Source: an uncultured Planctomycetia bacterium
GTDB lineage: Bacteria; Omnitrophota; Gorgyraeia; Duberdicusellales; 4484-171
Assembly (NCBI GenBank): GCA_964547735.1
Contig: CAZJOV010000001.1
Span: 5,789-69,788 of the forward strand
Direction: 5' to 3'
DNA: 64,000 nucleotides
The position numbers were made by a program, and so were the translations under genes. Under the pieces are notes generated by a model that made no database searches, was not told the origin of the DNA, and was given only the letters and a program-made list of their open reading frames with translations. Shown piece after piece: positions 28,188 through 47,600 of the stretch (the first letter of the stretch is position 1; every line of letters begins with the position of its first letter).

Positions 28188-29111
28188 ATGAGAGGGGCAA
28201 TTATTGGGGTGGGGAAAGTAGGTTCTTTGCATTTAAAGTTTCTAAAAAACTTTAAAGAAATAAAAAAAATTTATCTTGTTGATAAAAACCCAAAAAAAAT
28301 ATCTCCTTATCCTTTTGAAAGTTACCCTCATTATTCATCCTTGAAAAACAAGATTGATTTTGCAATTATCTCTGTTCCTACAATTTATCATTATGAAGTG
28401 GCTAAATTTTTTCTAAAAAATAAAATTCCTATTCTGGTAGAAAAACCTATTACCGCCACCCTTAGAGAGGCAAAACATCTTCTTACTCTTTCCCAAAAAA
28501 ACAAAACTCTTCTTTTTGTAGGCCACACAGAACGGTACAATATAGTATATCAGGAGGTTAAAAAAAATATAAAAAACCCTTGTTTTATCGAATGCCATCG
28601 CCTCAGTCCTTACCCTCATCGTTCTTTAGATATAAGTGTAGTGTCAGATTTGATGATTCATGATTTAGATATCCTTTTAGAACTAGTAAAAAGAAAGATA
28701 AAAAAAATTGAGGCGGTAGGGACAAAAGTTTTATCCTCCACTCCTGATATCGCCAATGCACGCATTGAATTTGAAGGAGGCTGTATCGCTAACCTAGTTG
28801 CCTCTCGTATTTCAAAGGAAAGAATAAGAAAATTCCGCATATTTTCTCCCAATTCTTATATTTCTTTAGATTTAGGAAATAGAAAGATAGAAACTTACAG
28901 AAAAATAAGAAGAAAGATTTATTACAAAAAAATAGAATATAAAAATATTCAGCCTCTTAAGAAAGAATTAGAAACATTTCTTTGGTGGGTAAAAGAAAAA
29001 AAAATTTCTATTTCCTTGATAAACAGAGCCTATCTTGCTTTAAAACTCGCCTTAAGAATTCAGAAAATAATAGAAAAAAATGAAAAAAATTATTTTTGTA
29101 GCAGGAGATAA
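28188..29111 (+). CDS. Gfo/Idh/MocA-family NAD(P)-dependent oxidoreductase, translationally coupled to lpxB
   Basis: N-terminal Rossmann segment R.AIIG.G..G..H. Conserved EKP (LVEKPIT) and the GH.ERYN region are typical of Gfo/Idh/MocA. Its 3' end overlaps the lpxB start by 32 nt. Confidence 0.75.
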   Translation: MRGAIIGVGKVGSLHLKFLKNFKEIKKIYLVDKNPKKISPYPFESYPHYSSLKNKIDFAIISVPTIYHYEVAKFFLKNKIPILVEKPITATLREAKHLLTLSQKNKTLLFVGHTERYNIVYQEVKKNIKNPCFIECHRLSPYPHRSLDISVVSDLMIHDLDILLELVKRKIKKIEAVGTKVLSSTPDIANARIEFEGGCIANLVASRISKERIRKFRIFSPNSYISLDLGNRKIETYRKIRRKIYYKKIEYKNIQPLKKELETFLWWVKEKKISISLINRAYLALKLALRIQKIIEKNEKNYFCSRR

Positions 29112-30153
29112 ATCCGGTGATCTTCTGGCAGGAAAGTTATGTGAAAAATTAGAAAACCTTTACAGAGGAAAAGTCAATATTTTTTCTTTTGCGGGTTCTG
29201 TTTTAGGAAAACACTCATTACTTTTATTTAATCTGGTAAACCATTCTGTCTCAGGATTATGGGAAGCAACCTCTCAATTTTTTAAATTCTTTCATATTTT
29301 CAATTATGTTCTTTCTAAAATAAGAAAAATTAAACCCGATTTAATTATTCTTGTCGACTTTCCTGAATTCAACCTTCACTTAGCGAAAGCATTAAATCAT
29401 CAATTTAAGATCTTCTATTACATCAGTCCACAAATATGGGCATGGCGAAAAAAAAGAATAAAGGCAATAAAACGATATATTGATAAAATGATTGTTATCT
29501 TTGAATTCGAAAAAGATATTTACCTTAAGAATAACATAGAAGTTTACTATTTTGGCCATCCCCTTTTAGATATTATCCCTCAAACACCCACATCTTCCAA
29601 AAATAGAATTATTTTTCTTCCTGGCTCAAGAAAAAATGAGATAAGAATCCATCTTCCTTTAGTATTATCTGCAAAAAAAAGATTGGAGAAGGAATTAAAA
29701 GATTATGAGTTTATAGCTGTACGCCCCCCTCATATTCCTCCAGCATTTTACCCTTCTCAGATAAAAACACACCTACACAACTACCAAATCCTAAGGGAAT
29801 CTAAATTTATCCTTACCTCCTCCGGAAGTGCTACGCTGGAAGCCACTATAATGGAGATACCTTTTCTTATTTTTTACAAGTTAAATCGATTAAGTTATTT
29901 TCTCCTTAGAAAAATGATTAATATAAATTTCATAGGTATGCCTAATATAATCGCTAACAAAAAAGTTGTGGAAGAATTCATCCAGAGAAAAGCTACTCCT
30001 TCTAACTTAGCTAAATATACATTAGAAGTTATCAGGAATCCTTCAAAATATAAAGAAATAAAAGAAAACTTAAAAAAAATAAAAGAAAGGCTTAAACCCT
30101 ACCATAGCCTAGAAAATACTGCTCTTTTTATTGGAAGAGAGCTCGGCTTATAG
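29080..30153 (+). CDS. lpxB: lipid-A-disaccharide synthase
   Basis: N-terminal IIFVAGD.SGDLLAGKL aligns with the LpxB GT-B N-terminus (ALVAGETSGDILGA). Length 357 aa. Confidence 0.85.
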   Translation: MKKIIFVAGDKSGDLLAGKLCEKLENLYRGKVNIFSFAGSVLGKHSLLLFNLVNHSVSGLWEATSQFFKFFHIFNYVLSKIRKIKPDLIILVDFPEFNLHLAKALNHQFKIFYYISPQIWAWRKKRIKAIKRYIDKMIVIFEFEKDIYLKNNIEVYYFGHPLLDIIPQTPTSSKNRIIFLPGSRKNEIRIHLPLVLSAKKRLEKELKDYEFIAVRPPHIPPAFYPSQIKTHLHNYQILRESKFILTSSGSATLEATIMEIPFLIFYKLNRLSYFLLRKMININFIGMPNIIANKKVVEEFIQRKATPSNLAKYTLEVIRNPSKYKEIKENLKKIKERLKPYHSLENTALFIGRELGL

Positions 30154-31965
30154 ATACTTTCTGGTTTTCAAATAATTATAGATATTGACTATTGCTGCGG
30201 GAGTAATTCCGCTAATTCTTAATGCATCCCCTAAAGTTTTAGGTTTAAGCTTGCTTAATTTTTCTCTTATTTCTTTAGAAAGGGAAGGAATGGAAAAGTA
30301 ATCAAGAAAGGGAGGAATTTTTACCTTATCCATTTCCTTTAACTGCCGAGCATAGCTGGCTTCTCTTTTAATGAATCCTTCGTACTTAACATTAATCTCT
30401 ACCTCTCTTTTGACCAAAGAATTAGCTATATCCTTTTTAAGGTAAGAAAGAATGTCTTCAAAGTTAATTTGTGGTCTTTTTAACACCTTAAAAAGAGATT
30501 CTTTCTTCCCATCAAATACTATTTTAGTTTTTTTTAAATTCTCTATCTCTTTCTTGATTTTTCTCTGTTTTTCTCTAATTCTTTCATATTCTTTTTCTCC
30601 TATCAGCCCCAAACTATATGCTTTATTAGAAAGACGAATATCAGCATTACTCTCTCTTAAAGAAAGACGAAACTCAGCACGTGAAGTAAACATTCTATAA
30701 GGCTCATCTACCCCTTTAGCTGTCAAATCATCAATCAGAACCCCGATAAATGCCTCTTCTCTTCTTAGGATGAAAGGATCTTTTCTTTTGACTTTTAAGG
30801 CAGCGTTTATTCCTGCAATCAGCCCCTGTGCTGCTGCCTCTTCATACCCAGTAGTACCATTAACCTGTCCGGCAAAAAATAATCCTGAGATTAACTTTGT
30901 TTCCAAAGTAGGATAGAGCTGAGTAGGCATAATTAAACCATGTTCAATTCCATAACCAGGACGCAAAACTTTCGCATTTTCTAATCCCTCAATAGTGTGA
31001 ATAAAATCCAACTGTACATCAAAAGGTAAGGAGGTAGAAATGCCATTAGGATAGACCTCAACAGAATCCCACCCTTCCGGTTCAATGAATATTTGATGTT
31101 TTTCTTTTTCGGGAAACTTTACTATCTTATCTTCTAAAGAAGGGCAATACCTTACTCCTTTTGACTTTATCTTTCCGGTATAGAGAGGAGAACGATTCAA
31201 ATTTTTCAAGATTATCTTATGCGTCTTTTTATTTGTATAGGTAAGATAACAACTTAGCTGTGGAGAAGGAACAGCAGTATTAGAAAACGAAAAAGGTTCT
31301 ACATCATAATGAGGTTTTTGCTCAACCATCCTGGAAAAATCTATCGTTCTTTTATCCAATCGTGCACACGTTCCCGTCTTAAAGTGAAGAGTTTCAAACC
31401 CTAACCTTTTTATATCTTCAAACAACTCATCACAGGATAACTCATAAAGACGGCCTCCACAAAAACTATCCAGACCAATATGAATCTTACTTTTAAGAAA
31501 AGTTCCTGCACAGATTATTACTGTTGAAGAATAAAACTCTTCTCCAAAATTAGTCTTAACTCCTATTACTTTTTTATTCTTTACTAAAATTTTATCCACC
31601 TTAGCCTCAAGAAGTTTTATATTTTCGTTATTCTCTAAAAAGGAACGGGCTATCTTAGGGTATAAAAATCTATCCACTTGAGCCCTTGTGGACCAGACAG
31701 CTTTCCCTTTGCTTTTGTTAAGCCGACGAAAACTCACCGCACATTTATCTGCAATCTTCCCAATTACTCCCCCTAATACATCTATCTCCTTTACCAGTTG
31801 TCCTTTAGAAACTCCTCCTACAGCAGGGTTGCAAGAAAGTTTTCCAACGGTATCCAAGCTTAAAGTAAGAACTAATACTGAAACTCCCAACCTGGCAGAA
31901 ATATTGGCAGCCTCAACTCCGGCATGCCCTGCTCCCACAACAATCACATCCCACTTCTTACTCAT
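30148..31965 (-). CDS. mnmG: tRNA uridine 5-carboxymethylaminomethyl modification enzyme MnmG (GidA)
   Basis: FAD-binding motif DVIVVGAGHAGVEAA, and overall a long GidA pattern with a C-terminal tRNA-binding region. I trimmed the start to the Met directly preceding the FAD motif. The ORF track extends 21 codons further upstream. Confidence 0.93.
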   Translation of the reverse strand: MSKKWDVIVVGAGHAGVEAANISARLGVSVLVLTLSLDTVGKLSCNPAVGGVSKGQLVKEIDVLGGVIGKIADKCAVSFRRLNKSKGKAVWSTRAQVDRFLYPKIARSFLENNENIKLLEAKVDKILVKNKKVIGVKTNFGEEFYSSTVIICAGTFLKSKIHIGLDSFCGGRLYELSCDELFEDIKRLGFETLHFKTGTCARLDKRTIDFSRMVEQKPHYDVEPFSFSNTAVPSPQLSCYLTYTNKKTHKIILKNLNRSPLYTGKIKSKGVRYCPSLEDKIVKFPEKEKHQIFIEPEGWDSVEVYPNGISTSLPFDVQLDFIHTIEGLENAKVLRPGYGIEHGLIMPTQLYPTLETKLISGLFFAGQVNGTTGYEEAAAQGLIAGINAALKVKRKDPFILRREEAFIGVLIDDLTAKGVDEPYRMFTSRAEFRLSLRESNADIRLSNKAYSLGLIGEKEYERIREKQRKIKKEIENLKKTKIVFDGKKESLFKVLKRPQINFEDILSYLKKDIANSLVKREVEINVKYEGFIKREASYARQLKEMDKVKIPPFLDYFSIPSLSKEIREKLSKLKPKTLGDALRISGITPAAIVNIYNYLKTRKYL

Positions 31966-33100
31966 AGACACCAGCCAATTTTTCTCCGCAGAATTTACAC
32001 CTTCCCTGAATAAGATTGTTTTCTTCAACAGAAAACCCCATTCTTTTTATAACCATCTTTCCGCAGTGAGGACAATAAGTATTTTCTCCATAATCGGTAA
32101 AAATATTACCAATATAGATGTATCTTAAACCTTTTCTCTTCCCAATTTTGTAAGCTTTCTCTAATACGGACAAAGGAGTAGTTTTGCTTTCATAAAACCG
32201 GTAATCAGGATGAAAACGATTAACATGCCAAGGGATATCATGAGAAAGAGAAGCAATAAAAGAAGCTATTTCTTCCAACTCTTCATCAGAATCGTTTAAT
32301 CCGGGAATAAGCAAAGTGGTTATCTCAACCCAGATTCCCAACTTTTTCATCAATTCTATATTCTTCAAAACCGGACTTAGAGAGGCTCCACAATATTTTT
32401 TATAGAAATCCTCAGAGAAAGCTTTCAAATCAATATTTGCCGCATCCAGATAAGGAGAAATCAACCTTATTGCCTCCTCACTCATAAATCCATTAGTGAC
32501 AAAATTGTTATAAAGCCCTCTTTTTTTAGCTAATTTTGCACACTCATAAGCTAACTCAAAAAATACTGTGGGCTCAGTATAAGTATAAGAGATACTTTTA
32601 CACCTATGATAGAAAGCCTCCTCTATAATCCCCTGAGGAGAAAAAAATCTACCTCTAATCCCTAACCTGTCTGCTTCTTTTTTCTGAGAGATTTCCCAAT
32701 TCTGACAAAACAGACACCTAAAATTACATCCTATACAAGCAATAGAATAAGCTAATGAGCCAGGAAGAAAATGAAAAAAAGGTTTTTTTTCGATAGGGTC
32801 AATATTTTTAGCTACTACTTCTCCATAATTTAAAGTATAAAGAAAACCTCCCTGGTTTATTCTTACTCCACAACGTCCTTTACTTCCTTCTTTAATTATA
32901 CAAAAATGGCTACAAAGATTACATCTTACCTCTTTATTTCTCCCTTTAATATATAGTAATGCTTCTTTCACAGAATCAATTATATAATTGATTTTCTCCC
33001 AATTCAATGTTAATATATAGCAGAATGAAAATAAAGGGAGAAAAAGCGATTGATCGGGATATAAAAAAAATTGAAGAGATTTTTTTTTCAAAACCTCCAA
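31958..33100 (-). CDS. radical SAM enzyme, AmmeMemoRadiSam-system type (PFL-activase-like)
   Basis: N-terminal Cys cluster VRCNLCSHFC...GRCGVR, and the radical SAM CxxxCxxC motif CIGCNFRCLFCQNWEIS. The true start is probably a non-ATG codon near 32993 (TTG in LNWEKINY), because the ATG at 33100 would overlap the divergent gene starting at 33007. Confidence 0.8.
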   Translation of the reverse strand: MEVLKKKSLQFFLYPDQSLFLPLFSFCYILTLNWEKINYIIDSVKEALLYIKGRNKEVRCNLCSHFCIIKEGSKGRCGVRINQGGFLYTLNYGEVVAKNIDPIEKKPFFHFLPGSLAYSIACIGCNFRCLFCQNWEISQKKEADRLGIRGRFFSPQGIIEEAFYHRCKSISYTYTEPTVFFELAYECAKLAKKRGLYNNFVTNGFMSEEAIRLISPYLDAANIDLKAFSEDFYKKYCGASLSPVLKNIELMKKLGIWVEITTLLIPGLNDSDEELEEIASFIASLSHDIPWHVNRFHPDYRFYESKTTPLSVLEKAYKIGKRKGLRYIYIGNIFTDYGENTYCPHCGKMVIKRMGFSVEENNLIQGRCKFCGEKLAGVYE

Positions 33101-33675
33101 AAAAAAAGAAAAAACATATATTTTTTATCCTTACTGGTTGCTTAATACTCTTAGGCAGTGCATTCCTCTTTTTTCAACATTATAGAATACTTCTTCTTCC
33201 CTATCTTAAAAAACCTAAATTGAGCTTACTTACTAACAAATTTCTAAAATCAATAAAATTCTCTACCTCTCAAGAAAAAATAAGATTCTCCCAAGGAACA
33301 ATATACCTTCCTCTTTCTTATAACAGGCCGCAAGAATTAATCCTCAATACAAAGAAACCGATAGATTTAGAAAATAATTTTCTCTGTCTTCATCTTAAAT
33401 TTTTAACACATTCCTCACCTAAATTAGAACTAATATGTGTGGTAAGAGACGAAAAATATTATTCCAATGTCCTTACTCCTTATAAAAAAAAGATTGCCTA
33501 TCATTCTAAGGAAGCCCCAAACTCAGCAGTTGTTCTTGTTAACCTTGAAAGTCGTTCTTCCCTAACAAATTTTTCTAAGATAAAACAAATAAGATTAACT
33601 TTTTATAATCTGAGGAGAAACCCTGTCTCTTTACTGATTGAAGATATAAAACTTAAAGAAAAGGAGGTAGAATGA
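33007..33675 (+). CDS. hypothetical single-pass membrane protein (N-in TM helix plus ~160-aa extracytoplasmic or cytoplasmic domain), partner of the ParA-like ATPase
   Basis: A Lys-rich N-terminus (KPPKKKKKH), then the hydrophobic helix IFFILTGCLILLGSAFLFF. I recognise no family. Its stop overlaps the downstream ATPase start (ATGA). Confidence 0.5.
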   Translation: MLIYSRMKIKGEKAIDRDIKKIEEIFFSKPPKKKKKHIFFILTGCLILLGSAFLFFQHYRILLLPYLKKPKLSLLTNKFLKSIKFSTSQEKIRFSQGTIYLPLSYNRPQELILNTKKPIDLENNFLCLHLKFLTHSSPKLELICVVRDEKYYSNVLTPYKKKIAYHSKEAPNSAVVLVNLESRSSLTNFSKIKQIRLTFYNLRRNPVSLLIEDIKLKEKEVE

Positions 33676-34694
33676 ATGTCATTACTGTAGTTAACCAGAA
33701 GGGAGGCTGCGGGAAAACTACCACCAGCGCGAACCTCTCCTTTGCTTTAAGTAAGAAATACAAAACTCTTTTAATTGATTTGGACCCTCAGGCTCATTCT
33801 ACTTTTTATCTGGGAATTAAGAATAATGATGATAAAGGTATCGTAAAGTTGTTTGAAGCCTCATTAGCGGGAAATTGCAGGATAGAAGAGTTTGCCCAAA
33901 GAAGAAACGATAATCTTTTTATTCTATCTTCCCGACTCAGCTTAAGTGTGTGGGAACACAAAATAAATCAATTTCCTGATCGTCTATTTTTCCTTTATAA
34001 GATTCTCTCCCAAAATTCCTTTTCTTACGATTATGTTATTATTGATTGTCCTCCCAACTTGGGCCTTCTCTCTCTTAATGCCATTGTGGCCAGTTCACAC
34101 CTTCTTATCCCCCTTTTGGTGTGTCCTTTTTCTCTGAAAGCACTAAAAAGCCTTCTGCAAGTGCTAAATTTAGTTGAAGAAAAGATGGGTAAAAAAATTA
34201 CTCCTTATTATCTTATAACTCAGCTTGATAAACGTGCTAAATTTTCTCTGTATTTCGTAGAAAAGATGAAAAAAGAACTAAAAGGGAACATTCTTAATAC
34301 AGTAATTAGAACGAATATAAGTTTAAGAGAAGCCTCCTTTAAAGGATTAAGCATTTTTGAATACAAGCCTTTATCTCGTGGGGCAAAAGATTATAAAACT
34401 CTTTCTGAAGAGATTATAAATCTTACTCAAGATAAAGGATGGGCTTATTTTTTCTTTAAAGGAAAGGATATTAATAATGTCTATATAGTAGGCGACTTTA
34501 ATCGTTGGCAGAAAGATGAAGAGTATAAAATGAAAAAAGCAGACGAGGAAAGTTGGTTCTTAAATTTTCCTCTTAAAAAGGGAAAGTATCACTATAAATT
34601 TCTGGCTGCTAACCGATGGATTGCTGATCCCCTCAATCCCTTTCAGGAAGATGACCCCTATGGAGGGAAAAACTCAGTATTAGTTATAAGTTAG
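33672..34694 (+). CDS. ParA/MinD-family deviant-Walker-A ATPase fused to a C-terminal AMPK-beta/CBM48-like glycogen-binding module
   Basis: Deviant Walker A VVNQKGGCGKTTTSANL, Walker A' DLDPQ, and Walker B IIDCPP. The C-terminal ~85 aa, VYIVGDFNRWQ...EESWFLNFPLKKGKYHYKFLAANRWIADPLNP, match the AMPK-beta GBD/CBM48 consensus (V.L.GSFNNW....F...L.LP.G.H.YKF.VDG.W..DP..P). Confidence 0.7.
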   Translation: MNVITVVNQKGGCGKTTTSANLSFALSKKYKTLLIDLDPQAHSTFYLGIKNNDDKGIVKLFEASLAGNCRIEEFAQRRNDNLFILSSRLSLSVWEHKINQFPDRLFFLYKILSQNSFSYDYVIIDCPPNLGLLSLNAIVASSHLLIPLLVCPFSLKALKSLLQVLNLVEEKMGKKITPYYLITQLDKRAKFSLYFVEKMKKELKGNILNTVIRTNISLREASFKGLSIFEYKPLSRGAKDYKTLSEEIINLTQDKGWAYFFFKGKDINNVYIVGDFNRWQKDEEYKMKKADEESWFLNFPLKKGKYHYKFLAANRWIADPLNPFQEDDPYGGKNSVLVIS

Positions 34695-35085
34695 ACAAGA
34701 TTTTAAGTGCTTTCTCATTATCATTAGAAGAAAAAATCAAAGTAGCTACCTGAGAAGAAGATGTTGTGCCGTAGATATATTCTAAATCAATACCTTCTTC
34801 TTTGAGTTTCCCTCCCAACTTATGAAGCTGACCTATCTCATCAGGAAGCTCAACTAAAACTACTTCTTTAAGCTCTACATTATGGTCTTGAGAGAGAACT
34901 TCTTTTGCTCTTAAATTATCTGAAGTAATTATCCTAAATATGGCTTGATTGTCTCTAACGTAAGCACAGATTGTGCGAATATTTATATTTTTTTGCGCAA
35001 TAACCCCTGTTATCTGAGCCAATTTCCCTACTTCATTTGAAGTAACCAAAAAAATTTCTTCTGTTTTTACCACCTTCATTTTCAC
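34684..35085 (-). CDS. tandem ACT-domain protein
   Basis: 133 aa with two beta-alpha-beta-beta-alpha-beta-like repeats (VGKLAQITGVIA...NI and VELPDEIGQLHKLGGKL...ID). Confidence 0.6.
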   Translation of the reverse strand: MKMKVVKTEEIFLVTSNEVGKLAQITGVIAQKNINIRTICAYVRDNQAIFRIITSDNLRAKEVLSQDHNVELKEVVLVELPDEIGQLHKLGGKLKEEGIDLEYIYGTTSSSQVATLIFSSNDNEKALKILSNL

Positions 35086-35089
35086 CTCC

Positions 35090-35668
35090 TTAATTTAGAG
35101 AATGGGAGAAGGAAAACAAATTTACTGAAGGTATACTAACTTCCGGATTCTTCGCAGAAACATCCTCATCAGGTAGATATCTTCCTTTTAAAGCTTCAAT
35201 TTTAAATACTCCTTGCGAGGTATCAAAAGAAAATTTACAATCCACAATTCGAGAAGATAGGTCAGTATAATGATTAAGGTTGGATGCATCCGGATAGAAC
35301 CTTACGGTATGCAGAGAATAATTATATGCATACCTTCTTATAGTATCATCACTATAATCTGAAGGAGTTTTACTTAAATCATTTCTTATATCCACATAAC
35401 AATTATTGAAGTTACAAGCTGATATATCTGCCTGCCAGTTTACACTTATTCCTACATTATCTGTATCTGCTACATCTCCTATCGCTTCCCTTAAACGCTT
35501 GTCAAGATGATGAATAATAGAAGAAATATCAGCTAAAACCTCACCACGATAATCCTGTCTTTTATACATCTTCAAAGCCGCCACCTCAAACGTTCCCACT
35601 GCCAGAACTACCAACCCCAACAAAGAAACGGCAATAATCAACTCCACCAAAGTCATTATCTTTCTCAT
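35090..35668 (-). CDS. type IV pilin-like / pseudopilin-like protein with non-canonical N-terminal processing site
   Basis: N-terminus MRKI-MTLVELIIAVSLLGLVVLAV has the hydrophobic alpha1 helix and Glu at +5 of a class III signal, but Ile rather than Gly at -1. The first ATG (the ORF track's GTG start is 3 nt upstream) overlaps the upstream gene's stop by 1 nt. Confidence 0.6.
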   Translation of the reverse strand: MRKIMTLVELIIAVSLLGLVVLAVGTFEVAALKMYKRQDYRGEVLADISSIIHHLDKRLREAIGDVADTDNVGISVNWQADISACNFNNCYVDIRNDLSKTPSDYSDDTIRRYAYNYSLHTVRFYPDASNLNHYTDLSSRIVDCKFSFDTSQGVFKIEALKGRYLPDEDVSAKNPEVSIPSVNLFSFSHSLN

Positions 35669-35991
35669 CACCAGCTTATGTTAAAAGTCACTTTGCGACA
35701 CTCCTGACCGGTTACAGTTACAGGTTCTACGTTATAGCTTAAGCTATATTTTCCTAAGGAACCCAAATCATACGAACCTAAGGAGAGTGCTCCGCTATCC
35801 CAGGTATCTTCTCTTACCTCAGAAAAAAGAGCATTTAGATTACTCTCTGCTAAAAGAGCACCCTCAAAAACATCTTCTGCAAAACGGACTGTACCTCTTA
35901 TATTTGCAAATACTGCTATTATCGCGGCAAAAATAACCATCACAATAAAGGTAGCAACAAGTATCTCTAAGAGAGTGAAGAAGTTTCTCAT
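35668..35991 (-). CDS. type IV pilin-like protein (minor pilin-like) with non-canonical N-terminus
   Basis: N-terminus MRNF-FTLLEILVATFIVMVIFAAI has an FTLLE motif with Glu+5, a 3-4 residue leader, and no Gly at -1. A stop lies immediately upstream of the ATG, so no alternative start can supply a Gly. Confidence 0.6.
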   Translation of the reverse strand: MRNFFTLLEILVATFIVMVIFAAIIAVFANIRGTVRFAEDVFEGALLAESNLNALFSEVREDTWDSGALSLGSYDLGSLGKYSLSYNVEPVTVTGQECRKVTFNISW

Positions 35992-36291
35992 CTAAAAATT
36001 TAAAATCCTTTTTACTTCTTTTTTTGAAAACGCTTTCTTGAAATCTCCAAAATCAATAAACTCTGCCTCAGAATACAATTTTTTAAACTTTCTTACTAAA
36101 AAAGCATCCGCTTTTCGACGAAATCCTATATATTTAAACTCCTTCTTACACTGAGGACATTTTTTCTCTCCAATCTTTATCCCTACTTTATGACAGGAAA
36201 AACACTCTCCAGAAAGTTCTCCTACTACCAAAAGATGATTTTTTATCTCTTCCAAATCTAATTTCATCCATATCCTTAAAAAATCTTCCAT
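35992..36291 (-). CDS. small zinc-ribbon protein (CxxC-x13-CxxC)
   Basis: ECFSCHKVGIKIGEKKCPQCKKEF makes a four-Cys ribbon. I trimmed the start to MEDF... because the longer ORF would overlap lpxC-fabZ by 40 nt. Confidence 0.45.
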   Translation of the reverse strand: MEDFLRIWMKLDLEEIKNHLLVVGELSGECFSCHKVGIKIGEKKCPQCKKEFKYIGFRRKADAFLVRKFKKLYSEAEFIDFGDFKKAFSKKEVKRILNF

Positions 36292-36292
36292 C

Positions 36293-37606
36293 TCAAGAAT
36301 CAACAAGGGAAAAAATAAGCTCAGCTTCCGCAACTATTTTCCCTCTCACAAATGCTTTTGTATAAACCACACCTGTCCTCGTTTTTATTTTACCACAAAT
36401 CACCTCAATTACAAGTTGATCTCCTGGGATAACTGTCTTTCTAAATTTTACCTTATCAGCAGCCATAAAATAAGCAAGTTTTCCTCGGTTTTTCTGATCC
36501 GCAAGCATAAGAACTCCCCCTACCTGTGCCATCGCCTCAATAATTAACACCCCCGGCATAACGGGACGCGAGGGAAAATGCCCTTTAAAAAAATAATCAT
36601 TAATAGTCACATTCTTTACTCCCACCGCTTTTTTGCCCGGCTCTAAACAAAGAATCTTATCTACCAACAAGAAAGGATAACGATGAGGCAATATCTTCAT
36701 TATCTCTTCCACAGAAATCTCCTCTTTCTGGGGGAAAAAATCGCCAAAAGAACTAACTCCTCCTGAAGTGATATTTCTGTAATATTCTTTAATCCTTTTG
36801 ACTAATTTAATATTGAGATTATGGCCACTTCTTATCGCAATCACATATCCTTTAAGGGGACCAGCCAAATACAAATCTCCCAGAAGATCCAAAACTTTAT
36901 GTTTCACGAATTCATTGGGAACTCTTAACTGGTTATTAACTACCTTATCTGAGGAAACCACTAAAGTATTTTCATAGTTAGAACCCTTTCCCAAGCCCAT
37001 CTCCAAAAGAGATTTTACTTCCTCCTCAAGACAAAATGTTCGCGCTTGATGAATATCTGTTTCATACTTTCCATCTAAATTTATGTCTAAGTAATCCGTA
37101 TTAATTAAAGGATTATTATACTTTAAAGTATAAGCGATTCTTAAAGAGGGATAAGGCAATACACAAAGAGAAGCATCTTCCTCCTGAACCCACAAGGGTT
37201 CTTTTATAGATAGGTATCTACGAGACAAGGACTGCTCCACAATCCCTGCTTTTTTTAAACATTCAACAAAATCCTTAGCACTTCCATCCATTCCGGGAAT
37301 TTCCTCTCCCCAGATATCAATTCTTAAATTATCAATTCCCAAAATATGTAAAGCAGCCATAAGATGCTCAATTGTATGGATATAGACAGAATTCTCTCCG
37401 ACAGAAGTGCGTCGAGGAAATATTTCAGGGTCCACTACTGAATAATAATCTGCCTTGATTATAGGATGAGAACTTAAGTCTCGACGGACAAAAAAAATTC
37501 CACTGTTAACAGAAGCAGGTAAAAACTCTATCTTTACTTTTTTCCCTGTATGAAGCCCTACTCCCTCAAGAGTAATTTTATCCTGAATTGTCTTTTGCTT
37601 TTCCAT
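36293..37606 (-). CDS. lpxC: bifunctional UDP-3-O-acyl-N-acetylglucosamine deacetylase / 3-hydroxyacyl-ACP dehydratase (LpxC-FabZ fusion)
   Basis: The N-terminal ~280 aa carry LpxC motifs (TL...V...GVGLHTG, HTIEHL..AL...GIDN, the zinc-binding HKVLDL.GDL). The C-terminal ~145 aa form a FabZ hotdog ([11 protein letters not shown]....E, catalytic H in GHFP). Confidence 0.9.
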
Positions 37607-38636
37607 CTTTTACATATCTTTTTAATCTCTCTATTTCCTCTTCTAACTCTTTTATCTTTTTATAAAGCTGAGGCAACCTCTGAATACAAGCATTGACGCG
37701 TCGGGCTATATTATGAGGCTTTGCCGGATATCCAGAAACTTTCGTATGAGGAGGAACAGACTTTGTTACTCCTGCCTGAGCAGCAACCACTGCTCCCTCT
37801 CCTATATGAATATGCCCTACCACTCCTGCCTGACCAGCCAAAATTGTACCTTCTCCTATAGTCGTGCTTCCGGAAATACCTGCCTGAGCAACAATAATAC
37901 AGTTTTCTCCTATCACTACATTATGAGCAATCTGCACCAGATTATCTATCTTCGTCCCTTTCCCTATAACCGTTTTATCAAAACGAGCACGATCAATGGT
38001 TACATTTGCCCCAATTTCTACATCATCACCAATAACTACAATCCCAATCTGAGGTATCTTCTCTCTTACCCCTTTAACCGTAGCAAATCCAAAGCCGTCA
38101 CTGCCAATAACGGCTCCGGAATGGATAATTACACGATTGCCTATCTCGATTCTTTCTCTTATAGAAACACAAGGATAGATTAAACACTTCTTACCAATTT
38201 TAGTCTTATACCCAATGTAACAATTTCCATAAATTATAGAATCATCACCAATCTCTACATCTTCTTCAATAATCGTATAAGCTCCTACCGCTACATTTTC
38301 CCCTAACTTTGCACTTTGTGCAATTATTGCTGTAGGATGAATTCCTTTAGGATGATGAGTATCTGGAGGAGCAACTAAACTTACAACTTTAGTAAAAGCT
38401 AAAGAAGGGTTATCCGTACGAATAATCGGCTTGTTGGCATATTCAATCTCTTTTGAAGTTATAACTGCAGAAGCTTTTGTTGTCTTCATCAAAGAGAAAT
38501 ACTTAGGGTTAGCCAAAAATGTAATATCCCCCTCTTTTGCCTCTTTTATTCCCGAGATGCCGGTAATTACTATCTCTGGATTTCCGACCAATTCTCCATT
38601 AATTATTTCAGCTATCTTTTTTAAGGTAATTTTCAT
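37578..38636 (-). CDS. lpxD: UDP-3-O-acylglucosamine N-acyltransferase
   Basis: The N-terminal LpxD-specific domain (L.EIA..I.GEL.G) is followed by left-handed beta-helix hexapeptide repeats, then a C-terminal helical extension. Length 352 aa. Confidence 0.9.
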
Positions 38637-41461: not shown

Positions 41462-42823
41462 TCAATCTTCTCTTACCTTGGAAAGATTAACAAACTTCAT
41501 ATATTCTTTTATAAATCCCAAGAAAACGCTTCCTACCGGACCGTTTCTTTGTTTAGCAATAATAACTTCAGCAATTCCTTTATTCTCCGGGGTAGGATTA
41601 TAGTACTCTTCCCGCAGAAGTAACACTACCACATCCGCATCCTGCTCAATTGCCCCTGATTCTCTCAAATCAGAAAGCTGAGGGCGATGATCCGCGCGTG
41701 TTTCTACCGCTCGTGACAATTGACTTACAGCAATCAAAGGAATATCTAATTCTTTGGCTAATGCTTTTAAGGCTCGAGAGACTTCAGAAATTTCCTGTTG
41801 TCTTGATTCCTTTCTTCCTAGTGTACGCATCATCTGAAGATAATCAATAACCAAAAGTTTTATATCATGATGAGCCTTTAATCTTCTTGCTTTTGCTCTC
41901 ACTTCAAATATATTCATCAAGGGTGTATCATCGATATAAATGGGAGCGCCCGACAACTTTCCGGCAGCAGAGGTAAGAAGAGGCCATTCACTGGGAGAGA
42001 GAAACCCCGTTCTTAGTTTATGGATATCCACTTTAGCCTGAGAACATAACATTCTCTGAATAAGCTGCTGGCGGGACATCTCCAGACTAAAAAAAGCTAC
42101 CGGTAAACCCTCCTCAACCCCTGCATATTCAATAATATTACTTACAAATGCGCTTTTACCCATACTGGGGCGTCCAGCAACAACAATAAAATCGCCTTTT
42201 TGTAAACCTGCTGTTTTTATATCAAAATCGACAAAGCCGGTAGGGATTCCTGTAATATGAGATTTCTTATAGTAAAGAGATTCAATCACCTCAATACTTT
42301 CTTTAAGAATCTCTTTAATATGAGTATATCCCCCCTCAACTCGTGCATCACTTATCTCAAAGATTAATTTTTCTGCTTTGTCAAGAATAGAATTTACCTC
42401 TTCCTCTTCTTTATAAGCTAAGGATAAAATCTTATGGGCATTATTTATTAAAGACCGCAGGATCCCTTTTTCTCTAACAATACGCGCATAATATCCTACA
42501 TTAATGGAAGAAGGGACAAAATCAGCCAGAGTAGTTAAATAAGTAGCTCCTCCTACTTTCTCTAAAAGTTTTTTCCTGCTTAATTCTTCTGAAACAGTAA
42601 GAATATCTGCTTTTTTCCTTGCATCAAACAAAGAGACTATAGAAGAGAAAATAATTCTGTGTTCCTCTTTATAAAAATCCTCCTCCCCAACTATCTCTAT
42701 TACCTCCAAGATAGCTTCCTCATTAATAAGCATTGCTCCTAAAACCGCCATCTCTGCCTCAATATTTTGAGGAGGGATTTTTTCTAATTCCGAAGATAGA
42801 GAGGTTACTTTTTGACTACCCAT
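41462..42823 (-). CDS. dnaB: replicative DNA helicase DnaB
   Basis: N-terminal PPQNIEAE..VLG..L, Walker A GRPSMGKSAF, and the SQLSR arginine finger region. Length 453 aa, with no intein. Confidence 0.95.
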   Translation of the reverse strand: MGSQKVTSLSSELEKIPPQNIEAEMAVLGAMLINEEAILEVIEIVGEEDFYKEEHRIIFSSIVSLFDARKKADILTVSEELSRKKLLEKVGGATYLTTLADFVPSSINVGYYARIVREKGILRSLINNAHKILSLAYKEEEEVNSILDKAEKLIFEISDARVEGGYTHIKEILKESIEVIESLYYKKSHITGIPTGFVDFDIKTAGLQKGDFIVVAGRPSMGKSAFVSNIIEYAGVEEGLPVAFFSLEMSRQQLIQRMLCSQAKVDIHKLRTGFLSPSEWPLLTSAAGKLSGAPIYIDDTPLMNIFEVRAKARRLKAHHDIKLLVIDYLQMMRTLGRKESRQQEISEVSRALKALAKELDIPLIAVSQLSRAVETRADHRPQLSDLRESGAIEQDADVVVLLLREEYYNPTPENKGIAEVIIAKQRNGPVGSVFLGFIKEYMKFVNLSKVRED

Positions 42824-45402: not shown

Positions 45403-46350
45403 CTAACTTTTTATAAAATCAAAAAGAATACTAATAGACTCCTCCAAGTGTATTCTTTTTATCGCCTCAGCAAATAAAGAAGCAACTGAAACCACCTTAA
45501 TCCTTTTGTTTTTTTTCTGAGGAGCCAGCTCAATGGAATCGGTAATCACCAAAAAATCTATGGGAGAATTCTCCAGTTTCTCCACAGCATTTGCCGATAA
45601 TACCCCGTGGGTAACACAGGCATAAATTTTCTTTGCTCCCTTCTCTTTCAATACTTTTGCTGCTTCAACTAAAGAACCACCCGTAGCAATAAGGTCGTCA
45701 ACCAAAACCGCATTTTTACCTTTCACTTCTCCCAAAATATGCATCACCTCTGTAGAATCCGGAGAATTTCTTCTTTTATCCACAATCGCCAGAGCTGCTT
45801 TAAATCTTTTGGCATAAGCACGTGCCATCTTTATCCCTCCCACATCAGGAGAAACCACCACAAGGTTATTATTTATCTTTATTCTTTTAAAATACTCAAT
45901 AAATACATTCACGGCATACAGATGATCCAAGGGAATATCAAAAAATCCCTGAATTTGTCCCGCATGAAGGTCTAAGGTAAGAATACGATCTGCTCCAGCA
46001 ATAGTCAAAAGATTGGCTACCAACTTTGCAGTAATAGGAACACGGGGTTGGTCTTTTCTATCTTGGCGAGCATAGCCAAAATAAGGAATTACAGCAGTAA
46101 TTCTTCTTGCCGAGGCTCTTTTTAAGGCATCAAGCATAATAAGAAGCTCCATAAGGTTCTCATTTACGGGAGGAGAAGTGGGCTGAACTACAAAAACATC
46201 TTTACCTCTTACGTTATCTTCTATCTTTACCCTCACCTCTCCGTCGCTAAATCGAGAGACCAATGCTCTTCCTAATTTTATCTTAAGATAGGTGCAAATT
46301 TTTTTTGCCAGTTTGGGATTTGCATTCCCGCTAAAAACTAACATTCTCAC
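45403..46350 (-). CDS. prs: ribose-phosphate pyrophosphokinase
   Basis: PRPP-binding site DLHA.QIQGFF and the PRPP motif VLVDDLIATGGSL. Length 315 aa. Confidence 0.95.
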   Translation of the reverse strand: MRMLVFSGNANPKLAKKICTYLKIKLGRALVSRFSDGEVRVKIEDNVRGKDVFVVQPTSPPVNENLMELLIMLDALKRASARRITAVIPYFGYARQDRKDQPRVPITAKLVANLLTIAGADRILTLDLHAGQIQGFFDIPLDHLYAVNVFIEYFKRIKINNNLVVVSPDVGGIKMARAYAKRFKAALAIVDKRRNSPDSTEVMHILGEVKGKNAVLVDDLIATGGSLVEAAKVLKEKGAKKIYACVTHGVLSANAVEKLENSPIDFLVITDSIELAPQKKNKRIKVVSVASLFAEAIKRIHLEESISILFDFIKS

Positions 46351-47600
46351 CTCTTCTTCCTAAGAACCCTTGCAGGAACTCCCACTACAATTGTATTGCT
46401 CTTCACATTTTTGGTAACTACTGCCCCTGCTCCGGTTAAAGCTTTTTTCCCTATCTTTAAAGGAGCGACCAAAATTGTATCTGAACCAATAAAAGCTTCT
46501 TTTCCAATATAAGTTTTATTCTTTCTCTCCCCATCATAATTAGCGGTAACTGTTCCTGCACCGATATTTACTTTCTTCTCCAAGTATGCATCTCCCAGGT
46601 AACTGAAATGTTTAACTTTACTCTCTTCTCCTATATAAGAACGATTAATCTCTGCAAAATTACCAATTTGGGCTCCTTTTTTAATTATTGTATTCTCTCT
46701 TATATGAGCAAAGGGTCCAACTACACAATTGTCGCCAATTATAACATTTTTTTCAATAAAGGTAAAGGGGTAAATTATTGAATTCTTTCCAATTTTTGCA
46801 TCGTAACTTAAAAAGGTAGTATCCGGGTCAATAATTTTTACACCTTTCTTTAATGCATTCTGAATAAATCTTTGATTAAGTATTTTATATACTTGAGAAA
46901 AATCCTCCAATGTATTTACTCCTAAAATTTCTCTATTATCTTTTAAAGAATAGGTAGAAATTTTTGCTCCTTTTTTATAAAGAATCTCTATTACCTGAGT
47001 CAAAAAATACTCCTTTTTTCTTTTATCCATATTTATCTGAGAAAGAGCTTCCTTAAGTACTCCTTTCTTAAAACAATAGATACCGCTGTTGACTTCTCTC
47101 GATTTTTTCCTTAAGTTAATTTTTTCTATAATTTTTTCAACCTTTCCTTCTCCGTCTCTTAAGACTCTCCCTAAATCATTTTCTTCCTCCAAAAAGGCAG
47201 TAATAAAAGAACAATCACTATCGTTTTTAAAATGAAGAGCTATAAGTTTTTTTAAAGAAAAGGCTTTTACCAAAGGCACGTCACCACATAGAATTAAAAC
47301 ACTTCCTCCTTTATTGCATTTACTTAAACCTATCTCTACTGCTTTGGCAGTTCCGTTCAATACCTTCTGTTCAGCAAATCTTAAAGAAGGATAATTTTTT
47401 CTTACTATCTTCTTTACCATCTCCTTCCTGAACCCTACCACAAAAACAACCTGGTTGATGACATTTTTCAAAGAAAAAATAGTATCTAAAAGATAAAAAA
47501 CCAGAGGCCTTCCCCCTAATTCCACAACTACTTTTGGTTGATTAAGCCCTAACCGCTTGCTTCTTCCTGCTCCCAGAATTATCACATCTACTTTTTTCAT
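46347..47600 (-). CDS. glmU: bifunctional UDP-N-acetylglucosamine pyrophosphorylase / glucosamine-1-phosphate N-acetyltransferase
   Basis: The N-terminal nucleotidyltransferase loop ILGAGRSKRL...PKV is followed by C-terminal LbH hexapeptide repeats. Length 417 aa. Confidence 0.85.
   Translation of the reverse strand: MKKVDVIILGAGRSKRLGLNQPKVVVELGGRPLVFYLLDTIFSLKNVINQVVFVVGFRKEMVKKIVRKNYPSLRFAEQKVLNGTAKAVEIGLSKCNKGGSVLILCGDVPLVKAFSLKKLIALHFKNDSDCSFITAFLEEENDLGRVLRDGEGKVEKIIEKINLRKKSREVNSGIYCFKKGVLKEALSQINMDKRKKEYFLTQVIEILYKKGAKISTYSLKDNREILGVNTLEDFSQVYKILNQRFIQNALKKGVKIIDPDTTFLSYDAKIGKNSIIYPFTFIEKNVIIGDNCVVGPFAHIRENTIIKKGAQIGNFAEINRSYIGEESKVKHFSYLGDAYLEKKVNIGAGTVTANYDGERKNKTYIGKEAFIGSDTILVAPLKIGKKALTGAGAVVTKNVKSNTIVVGVPARVLRKKR

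Follow-up and report, generated by a model that had tools for sequence, protein, structure and literature searches.

ATPases of the ParA/MinD family (‘A/D ATPases’) act upon a varied list of cargos—chromosomes, plasmids, the divisome, microcompartments, flagella, chemoreceptor arrays and conjugation or secretion machines—from one of two matrices, the nucleoid or the membrane; in the 2024 review that sets out this list, glycogen, carbohydrate and granules go unmentioned (PMC11407121). The matrix is normally selected by a C-terminal determinant: in the MinD/MinE system the ATPase forms an ATP-dependent dimer, its C-terminal appendage sets the surface that is bound, and a peptide of the partner stimulates hydrolysis and release (PMC11407121). 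As a general rule (PMC10241942), a partner of an A/D ATPase contacts it through a positively charged N-terminus and is bound to the cargo by the remainder of its chain. Here, we analyse a 64,000-nucleotide (nt) stretch of DNA (contig CAZJOV010000001.1, assembly GCA_964547735.1; ‘the window’, whose positions are used throughout) and, within it, a pair of genes encoding a ParA/Soj-type ATPase that ends in a carbohydrate-binding module (CBM) of the CBM48/AMPK-beta type and, directly upstream, a single-pass membrane protein (‘the partner’). At roughly even chances, in our estimation, the two genes specify a system of the ParA/MinD type, switched by ATP, whose target is cytoplasmic alpha-glucan (glycogen). 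To our knowledge, the placement and inheritance of glycogen granules in bacteria are essentially unexplained, and the pair may be the first candidate for a bacterial system that places or tethers granules of stored sugar. The initial annotation of this locus, made from the sequence, knew of no description of such a ParA-like system, and our survey of open-access papers and preprints likewise found nothing that joins a ParA-type ATPase with CBM48 or with glycogen.

Functional parallels come from eukaryotes. STBD1, which combines a transmembrane (TM) anchor with a CBM20 module, clusters glycogen at membranes of the endoplasmic reticulum (PMC5358331, PMC7648618), whilst starch granule initiation in plants provides the context for PTST2, a CBM48 protein, and MFP1 (PMC11772324, 10.64898/2026.04.21.719982). 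The likeness to STBD1 is one of function, a membrane anchor being combined with a starch/glycogen-binding module; it is, however, a single polypeptide, carries a CBM20, has no ATPase switch and is unrelated in sequence. The plant pair resembles ours in that a CBM48 protein, together with a partner, influences the site of an alpha-glucan granule, but these are coiled-coil proteins of a plastid setting, without a P-loop ATPase and again unrelated in sequence. MFP1 is associated with the thylakoid.

The fusion of ATPase and CBM is a recurrent architecture. NCBI lists the exact protein under the name ‘ParA family protein’, from a metagenome-assembled genome (MAG) of Candidatus Omnitrophota; the Pfam family AMPK1_CBM (PF16561) is found in all 120 of the best database clusters (332-368 amino acids (aa), identity 42-100%), and a scan of one genome per GTDB species returned at least 590 relatives. 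We kept 80 of these (loci L001-L080), to which all conservation counts given here refer: every one carries the fusion, 79 over near-full query length and one (L065) cut by the end of its contig. Their MAG labels, as deposited, are Omnitrophota, Planctomycetia, Myxococcota, Desulfobacterota/Deltaproteobacteria, Eisenbacteria, Margulisiibacteriota, Gemmatimonadales, Acidobacteriota, Auribacter and Phycisphaerae, with single MAGs from Methanobacteriota, Spirochaetaceae and Bacteriovoracaceae. Genes in the loci analysed are simple open reading frame (ORF) calls, other than in a further set, L081-L087, and loci of high GC content are less reliable. An assembly chimera or frameshift at ~34430, a possibility raised by the initial annotation, is therefore rejected: the same architecture recurs in the 120 top clusters, at near-full length in 79 of the 80 loci, and in hundreds of genomes overall.

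Working from the N-terminus of the 340-aa protein, we see a complete ATPase. Pfam places AAA_31 at residues 1-176 (E 2.1e-42), with CbiA also matching (E 5e-19), and the deviant Walker A motif NQKGGCGKT occupies residues 8-16, with K10 as its signature Lys. K10, G11, G12, C13, K15 and T16 are kept in all 79 alignable relatives; D36 and D38 of the A' box, D125 of Walker B, and R188 are kept in 80/80, so that the ParA/MinD-type motifs initially read from the sequence stand across the family. NCBIfam offers no specific model, its ParA, BcsQ, RepA and MinD profiles all falling far under their cut-offs (46 bits vs 213 for MinD, TIGR01968; 92 vs 158 for BcsQ, TIGR03371). An AlphaFold2 monomer model, built from 43 sequences with a mean predicted local distance difference test (pLDDT) score of 90.4, shows a MinD/Soj-type alpha/beta domain over residues 1-252, followed by an all-beta domain at 255-339. 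When searched against the PDB with Foldseek, the model returns ParA/Soj structures at the top (8ray, 9a6n, 2bek and 6iub; target TM-scores 0.84-0.94, identity 28-34%), and, lower down, McdA (6non), plasmid ParAs, BcsQ/BcsRQ, MinD and FleN/FlhG; phmmer matches 8ray with E 1.4e-33. Judged by sequence and predicted fold together, the protein is a Soj-like ParA ATPase whose ATPase motifs are all intact. Membership of the bacterial tyrosine kinases (BY-kinases) was rejected, the relevant profile (TIGR01007) scoring 35 bits vs a cut-off of 108 and the C-terminus being a CBM48 without a Tyr-rich tail; BcsQ was likewise rejected, on its profile score and on the finding of bcs genes in none of the neighbourhoods examined. 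As a side observation, the Cys of the Walker A motif (KGGCGKT) is kept across phyla (79/79) where Soj and MinD have Val, and could be usable as a sequence signature of the family.

Chromosomal type-Ib ParA/Soj shares with our protein the fold and size of the ATPase, the deviant Walker A with its signature Lys, the A' and B motifs, and the lack of an N-terminal extension; it differs in lacking both the Walker A Cys and the C-terminal CBM48, and the locus described here has neither a ParB box II nor parS nearby. The Soj segment IPRNVRLAEA aligns to IRTNISLREA in the ATPase, with both Soj Arg residues—including the one that we take to contact DNA—replaced at the aligned positions. The C-terminal amphipathic helix is also absent, the C-terminus being instead a CBM according to both Pfam and the AlphaFold2 model. 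As the Soj Arg residues are replaced and the helix is missing, neither of the usual matrix determinants of an A/D ATPase is evident, and the CBM takes the C-terminal position. MinD thus offers a parallel, carrying its own appendage at the same position, although the appendage here is an 85-residue CBM rather than an amphipathic helix, and the partner, an integral membrane protein, bears no relation to MinE.

That the last part of the protein is a CBM48/AMPK-beta module, as first proposed from its motifs, is upheld by profile and by sequence matches in the PDB. AMPK1_CBM matches residues 267-337 with E 8.8e-11 (42.3 bits vs a gathering score of 26.8), CBM_48 (PF02922) falling slightly under its cut-off (20.7 vs 22.4). 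The last 102 residues match the glycogen-binding domain of rat AMPK-beta1 in the PDB (1z0n, E 3e-4; also 1z0m), together with GH13 enzymes and the starch phosphatase LSF1. In the alignment with 1z0n, residues W100/K126/W133/L146/N150—which we take, from the work on 1Z0M, to be the carbohydrate contacts of AMPK-beta1—correspond to W279/K309/W316/Y330/N334. W279, W295, W316, Y308, D319, G331 and S335 are invariant (80/80); position 309 is K or R in 73/80, position 330 aromatic in 61/80, and position 334 N or D in 78/80. AlphaFold2 makes residues 255-339 an all-beta domain with block pLDDT values of 78-93, and not the canonical helix of ParA proteins; the fold search, made with the full-length model, returned matches to the ATPase only. 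The linker between the two domains differs greatly in length: the segment that includes it has 21 residues in the window protein and 21-76 across the 80 relatives. Taken together, the C-terminal domain is, by its sequence, an AMPK-beta-type CBM48 that keeps the presumed sugar-contact positions. It shares with the AMPK-beta domain (1Z0M/1Z0N) its Pfam family and the five aligned and conserved contact positions; unlike that domain, it is fused to a ParA ATPase and not part of a kinase-scaffolding subunit, and the identity between the two is low.

Used as a query on its own (34407-34691), the module shows that its CBM subtype also occurs as 2-18 tandem copies in many other proteins (P0134-P0282), amongst them ~480-aa families with four copies and signal peptides, a 1812-aa protein with 18 copies, and giants of 5025 aa (9 copies) and 6207 aa (14 copies). 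The 4423 representatives retrieved at E <= 1e-3, from 1.84 billion searched, give no count of the fusion family, because tandem-repeat proteins rank above the fusion proteins.

The partner matches no Pfam or NCBIfam family. Word-indexed searches returned just five matches, and 13 with a profile, a scarcity that reflects fast divergence; since so few relatives were found by sequence searches, its conservation is shown through gene neighbourhoods, hhalign and hidden Markov models (HMMs). Directly 5' of the ATPase gene in most Omnitrophota loci lies a same-strand gene of ~155-300 aa with one hydrophobic segment. The genes in this position form three main BLAST clusters, of 32, 7 and 4 loci, and hhalign relates the window's cluster to cluster 12 (96.8%, E 3e-10) and cluster 1 to cluster 12 (94.8%, E 5e-8). 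A combined HMM finds a partner-like gene adjoining the ATPase gene in 46 of the 80 loci and in the window, three of them divergently oriented, and also matches the genes upstream of the ATPase in L081-L083, the complete genome CP070807.1 being one of these loci; in L084-L087 the candidate is an upstream gene of partner size that belongs to no family. The pair is therefore kept in relatives, a point that the initial annotation had asked to be tested. That annotation had also named the outcomes that would speak against it—a C-terminal segment without a CBM profile match or folding as a ParA helix, a chimeric assembly, a pair not kept in relatives—and each was examined by profile, model and relatives, with none overturning its reading.

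An alignment of 46 partner N-termini gives the consensus M.K..IYEHLA+I YL..S.K KKKK, or, as a family motif, [DE]-h-x-x-x-L-A-x-h-Y-[LF] followed by a run of Lys/Arg; in the window protein this part appears as a short helix (DIKKIEEIFF) and then a KPPKKKKK run. AlphaFold2 predicts helices at residues 6-21 and 30-52. The hydrophobic segment at residues 38-56 has a mean Kyte-Doolittle value of 2.55 over its 19 residues, and a TM-like segment is present in every family member (minimum 1.79). K+R residues number 5.7 on the N-terminal flank of this segment vs 2.5 on the C-terminal flank, with N exceeding C in 42/47 sequences; we therefore predict an N-in, C-out topology and, from that, a periplasmic location for the C-terminal domain, a beta-jelly-roll with a carbohydrate-binding-module-like fold. 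Hence the single TM segment and want of a recognisable family that were first noted both hold, and the picture of an otherwise featureless protein does not. A basic N-terminal peptide encoded beside the ATPase fits, at the level of sequence, the rule given above for A/D partners, and by analogy the peptide is a putative ParA-docking or ATPase-stimulating tag. A fast-evolving ‘hypothetical’ membrane family of the Omnitrophota is thereby given a predicted fold and topology.

Two independent lines of evidence point to alpha-glucan: the presumed sugar-contact positions, described above, and the company that the ATPase gene keeps. In at least seven different arrangements it lies near genes of alpha-glucan metabolism (GH57, GH77, GlgP, GlgA), our argument here being the number of independent arrangements, taken without a background rate. 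In ~20 loci a GH57 gene (E 7e-67) stands directly 5' of the partner, at -2, within a run that reads lipoprotein, AlgE-like porin, GH57, partner, ParA-CBM48, 3-TM protein, Lys-rich protein; an Alginate_exp porin cluster (E 4e-25) is found in 23 loci and a lipoprotein cluster in 10, in the same strand-run as GH57, partner and ParA. In L081 (CP070807.1) the partner is present and three GH57 genes (AmyA type, plain and BE_C type) lie within 1.2-7 kb. A partner-sized upstream gene is seen in L086, with three GH57 genes within 5-10 kb; in L084, with a GH57 remnant only; and in L085, where the pair divergently abuts GH57+DUF3536, GH77, a two-component pair and a free 92-aa CBM48 protein, the same cluster holding a GlgA-type synthase, DUF4912 and GH57+BE_C (branching enzyme). 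A partner or partner-sized upstream gene accompanies five of the arrangements. L004 has a GH77 4-alpha-glucanotransferase, GH57+DUF3536 and glycogen phosphorylase, convergent with and abutting the ATPase gene, and L007 a GH57 gene two genes upstream, the partner HMM being negative in both; L025 has a GH57 gene of branching-enzyme type 4.7 kb downstream, the gene upstream of its ATPase being pilin-like and not a partner. The study in PMC8542988 reports genes for glycogen synthesis in most of the Omnitrophota MAGs that it covers.

Several other neighbours recur. The free-standing CBM48/AMPK1_CBM protein of L085 (4176-4454) sits inside the glycogen cluster that abuts the partner and ParA-CBM48 pair. 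At +1 or +2 of the ATPase gene (+3 in one case), 27 Omnitrophota loci encode a protein of ~135 aa (BLAST cluster 2, e.g. L023:11000-12000) that joins a Lys/Ala/Pro-rich, histone-H1-like tail to a small beta-barrel, with weak Pfam matches to HC2 and EF-Tu domain 2. A 108-aa, DUF4870-like protein with three TM segments is found at +1 in 20 of the 21 loci that have one. By HMM search, both proteins are absent from the window.

Because the presumed AMPK-beta1 contact positions are conserved and the ATPase gene is repeatedly found near GH57, GH77, GlgP and GlgA genes, we favour alpha-glucan as the target of the system, and envisage it working as follows. ATP binding would produce a sandwich dimer carrying two CBM48 modules, and because it carries two, the dimer would bind the polyvalent surface of glycogen avidly—much as dimerisation of MinD pairs two C-terminal amphipathic helices and so generates affinity for membrane, the CBM48 having the same C-terminal position. 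The N-terminal peptide of the partner, displayed on the cytoplasmic face of the inner membrane, would dock the ATPase and stimulate hydrolysis in the manner of ParB, MinE and McdB, and turnover of ATP would serve to tether glycogen particles, to release them or to pattern them with respect to the membrane; the periplasmic jelly-roll may serve to fix or regulate the site of tethering at the envelope. The consequence would be control over the placement, inheritance or accessibility of glycogen in these very small cells. A bolder version, possible but doubtful, makes glycogen itself the positioning matrix, a third type of surface for ParA/MinD ATPases beside nucleoid and membrane. Here, dimerisation would lead to bivalent binding of alpha-glucan through CBM48, the membrane-anchored activator would strip the ATPase off again, and the resulting self-organising gradient might place granules, or envelope sites relative to granules, and partition granules at division. 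As a glycogen-directed system, the pair would offer a candidate, open to direct test, for the active organisation of stored polysaccharide, in a family that is widespread, and would supply a compact module of ATPase plus peptide tag for synthetic biology.

A number of observations weigh against a glycogen-directed system. We infer, in equal measure, the binding of sugar, dimerisation, stimulation of the ATPase and the membrane topology; non-specific binding of DNA may occur through other basic residues; and a CBM-like domain in the periplasm is left unexplained by a cytoplasmic glycogen system, whichever version of the mechanism is chosen. K309 is replaced by Q in 7/80 relatives and N334 by D in 31/80, and secreted proteins carry tandem copies of this CBM subtype, so the module is not specific to intracellular glycogen. 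Outside the Omnitrophota, in groups such as Myxococcota and Desulfobacterota, both the partner and glycogen genes are missing from the vicinity of the fusion, whose neighbours are MerR, ATP-cone, AAA, bifunctional-nuclease (BFN) and PilZ genes. Nor were alpha-glucan genes found in the window itself, where the 30 ORFs scanned with Pfam or NCBIfam are housekeeping genes; some 30 further ORFs of at least 120 aa had no family-library scan, so the window could still encode GlgA, GlgB, GlgC or GlgP. The neighbour-cluster HMMs, GH57 included, gave a sole match when run on all window ORFs, to a PRPP synthase ORF (45403-46350), and a candidate GlgC at 46347-47600 was rejected, being GlmU. The search for glg genes suggested by the initial annotation came back empty for the scanned ORFs of the window, and positive for the surroundings of the ATPase in relatives.

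Four other explanations need to be set against the favoured one. The system could be built like McdAB, with the ATPase dimer on nucleoid DNA, the fused CBM48 holding a granule as cargo and the membrane partner merely modulating turnover; we consider this unlikely. In its favour, chromosomal ParA/Soj and, after them, McdA stand nearest in sequence and structure; basic residues persist near the Soj motif (position 219 is K/R in 78/80, and R188 is invariant); and 27 loci encode the histone-H1-like, Lys-rich protein at +1/+2. McdA/McdB is a two-gene, ParB-less ParA system for a metabolic inclusion, as ours is proposed to be, with a fast-evolving partner whose N-terminus is charged, and McdA is itself amongst the structural matches. 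Set against this are the replacement of both Arg residues of the Soj IPRNVRL motif and the behaviour of position 213, an invariant Arg in the close clade and His in 41/80 of the wider family. The division of labour also differs: in known systems the partner sits on the cargo and McdA on the nucleoid, whereas here the predicted module for binding cargo or matrix belongs to the ATPase, and the partner is integral to the membrane. Less probable again, to our minds, is a role akin to those of BcsQ, FlhG or TadZ, in which the ATPase would place or regulate a glycan complex of the envelope—its cargo being the partner together with two proteins whose genes lie upstream in many Omnitrophota, the AlgE-like porin and the lipoprotein—and the CBM48 would act as a sensor of cytoplasmic glycogen or maltodextrin, as in AMPK. 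By the usual rule it is the body of the partner that marks the cargo, and here that body is membrane-embedded with a periplasmic CBM-like domain; the porin and lipoprotein genes share a strand-run with GH57, partner and ParA; and there is weak similarity to BcsQ, with BcsRQ structures amongst the fold matches. BcsQ also parallels our ATPase in that it belongs to the ParA/MinD family, is linked to the biology of a polysaccharide and has the gene for a small partner upstream of its own. It has no CBM, however; our protein falls under the family cut-off and has no bcs genes about it; neither porin nor lipoprotein is present in the window or in most of the other arrangements, in which cytoplasmic alpha-glucan enzymes recur; and the pair comes without synthase or secretion genes.

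The remaining two explanations are far weaker. That the CBM48 fold is purely a scaffold for protein-protein interaction, binding no sugar, strikes us as very improbable: E-set and Ig-like modules often serve as interaction domains, a plug protein of the type IX secretion system (T9SS) gives a weak match, and the beta-CBM of the AMPK holoenzyme packs against the kinase domain as well; yet the residues conserved here are those we take to contact carbohydrate (W279 and W316 in 80/80, K/R309, N/D334), and alpha-glucan metabolism genes lie in the neighbourhood. We give the slightest credence of all to the idea that the protein is the phylum's chromosome-partition Soj with an accessory domain. Its best PDB matches are indeed chromosomal ParA/Soj, and the window contains MnmG/GidA (30148-32028, ~1.6 kb upstream of the pair) and DnaB (41462-42823). 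Against this, no real ParB box II (GERRxRA) exists in the 80 GTDB loci or anywhere in the window, the only two regular-expression matches falling in low-complexity, Arg/Ala-rich frames of high-GC loci; ParB families are not among the called neighbours in L081-L087; and the Arg presumed to bind DNA in Soj is not kept. The fusion is also present in Myxococcota and Desulfobacterota MAGs, and cultured members of both groups have canonical ParABS. With ParB near none of the loci examined, we rejected this explanation as unlikely. A second ParA was not found in the window.

Turning to the layout of the pair (Table 1), the ATPase ORF (33672-34694, plus strand, 340 aa) and the longest ORF for the partner (33007-33675, plus strand, 222 aa) are as initially listed, as is the overlap of stop and start. 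Because its five closest homologues begin at M7, the partner probably starts at 33025, giving 216 aa. Read directly from the sequence, the partner's TGA (33673-33675) overlaps the ATG of the ATPase (33672-33674) as ATGA, and a Shine-Dalgarno sequence, AAGGAGG (33661-33667), stands 5 nt before that ATG. The 4-nt overlap is identical in L002, L003, L028 and L063, most other partner-bearing loci having a gap of 0-40 nt; such an overlap suggests that the two genes are co-translated.

Table 1. Positions in the window of the features of the partner and ATPase genes, with the evidence for each.
Feature	Position	Strand	Evidence
Partner gene, predicted single-pass inner-membrane protein, 216 aa (probable start)	33025..33675	+	ORF, homologue starts
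Partner N-terminal peptide, predicted cytoplasmic	33025..33114	+	Alignment of 46, AlphaFold2, charge count
Partner TM helix, IFFILTGCLILLGSAFLFF	33118..33174	+	Kyte-Doolittle, AlphaFold2
Partner C-terminal beta-jelly-roll, CBM-like fold, predicted periplasmic	33244..33660	+	N-in topology
Shine-Dalgarno sequence and ATGA stop/start overlap	33661..33675	+	Direct sequence reading
ParA/Soj-type ATPase domain, residues 1-252	33672..34427	+	AAA_31, AlphaFold2, Foldseek, phmmer
Deviant Walker A, NQKGGCGKT	33693-33719	+	Sequence
Predicted CBM48/AMPK-beta-type alpha-glucan-binding module, residues 255-339	34434..34688	+	AMPK1_CBM, 1z0n match

The pair forms a small plus-strand island, with an AmmeMemoRadiSam radical-SAM gene and MnmG to one side and a gene for a pair of ACT domains to the other. 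The ACT-pair ORF (34684-35085, minus strand; ACT E 1e-10, ACT_8 E 3e-8 in Pfam) is convergent and overlaps the 3' end of the ATPase gene by 11 nt, just as first described; the suggestion that it might add ligand sensing to the pair is unsupported. In L084 and L086 an ACT-pair gene lies 4-5 kb off, on the strand opposite the pair and two genes upstream of the GH57 gene or its remnant. Being convergent in the window and 4-5 kb away in relatives, it was rejected as a component of the system.

Some smaller features of the surroundings may be recorded. The radical-SAM ORF, as listed (31958-33100, minus strand), runs into the start of the partner; the match to its family starts at residue 55, and the minus strand has a promoter-like site at 33007..32979. 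Its true start is probably near 32970, leaving a short divergent intergenic region before the partner. GC skew is negative throughout the window (-0.11 to -0.39) and long ORFs are nearly all on the minus strand, the only plus-strand islands being the partner and ParA pair and 28188-30153. Beyond the ACT gene come two small minus-strand ORFs (35090-35991) with prepilin-like hydrophobic N-termini (MRNFFTLLEILVATFIV; MTLVELIIAVSLLG), a Cys-rich, zinc-ribbon-like ORF (35992-36333), what appears by eye to be an LpxC-FabZ fusion (36293-37606, minus strand; LpxC-like N-terminus, FabZ-like C-terminus) and, next after it, an LpxD-like ORF (37578-38636). In several lineages of the relatives, the fusion gene repeatedly has BFN genes and genes of PilZ or STAS-PilZ type next to it (L075:9408-9911, L048:4100-4693, L056:89-466, L036:8294-9070), the PilZ neighbours hinting at an input from cyclic di-GMP.

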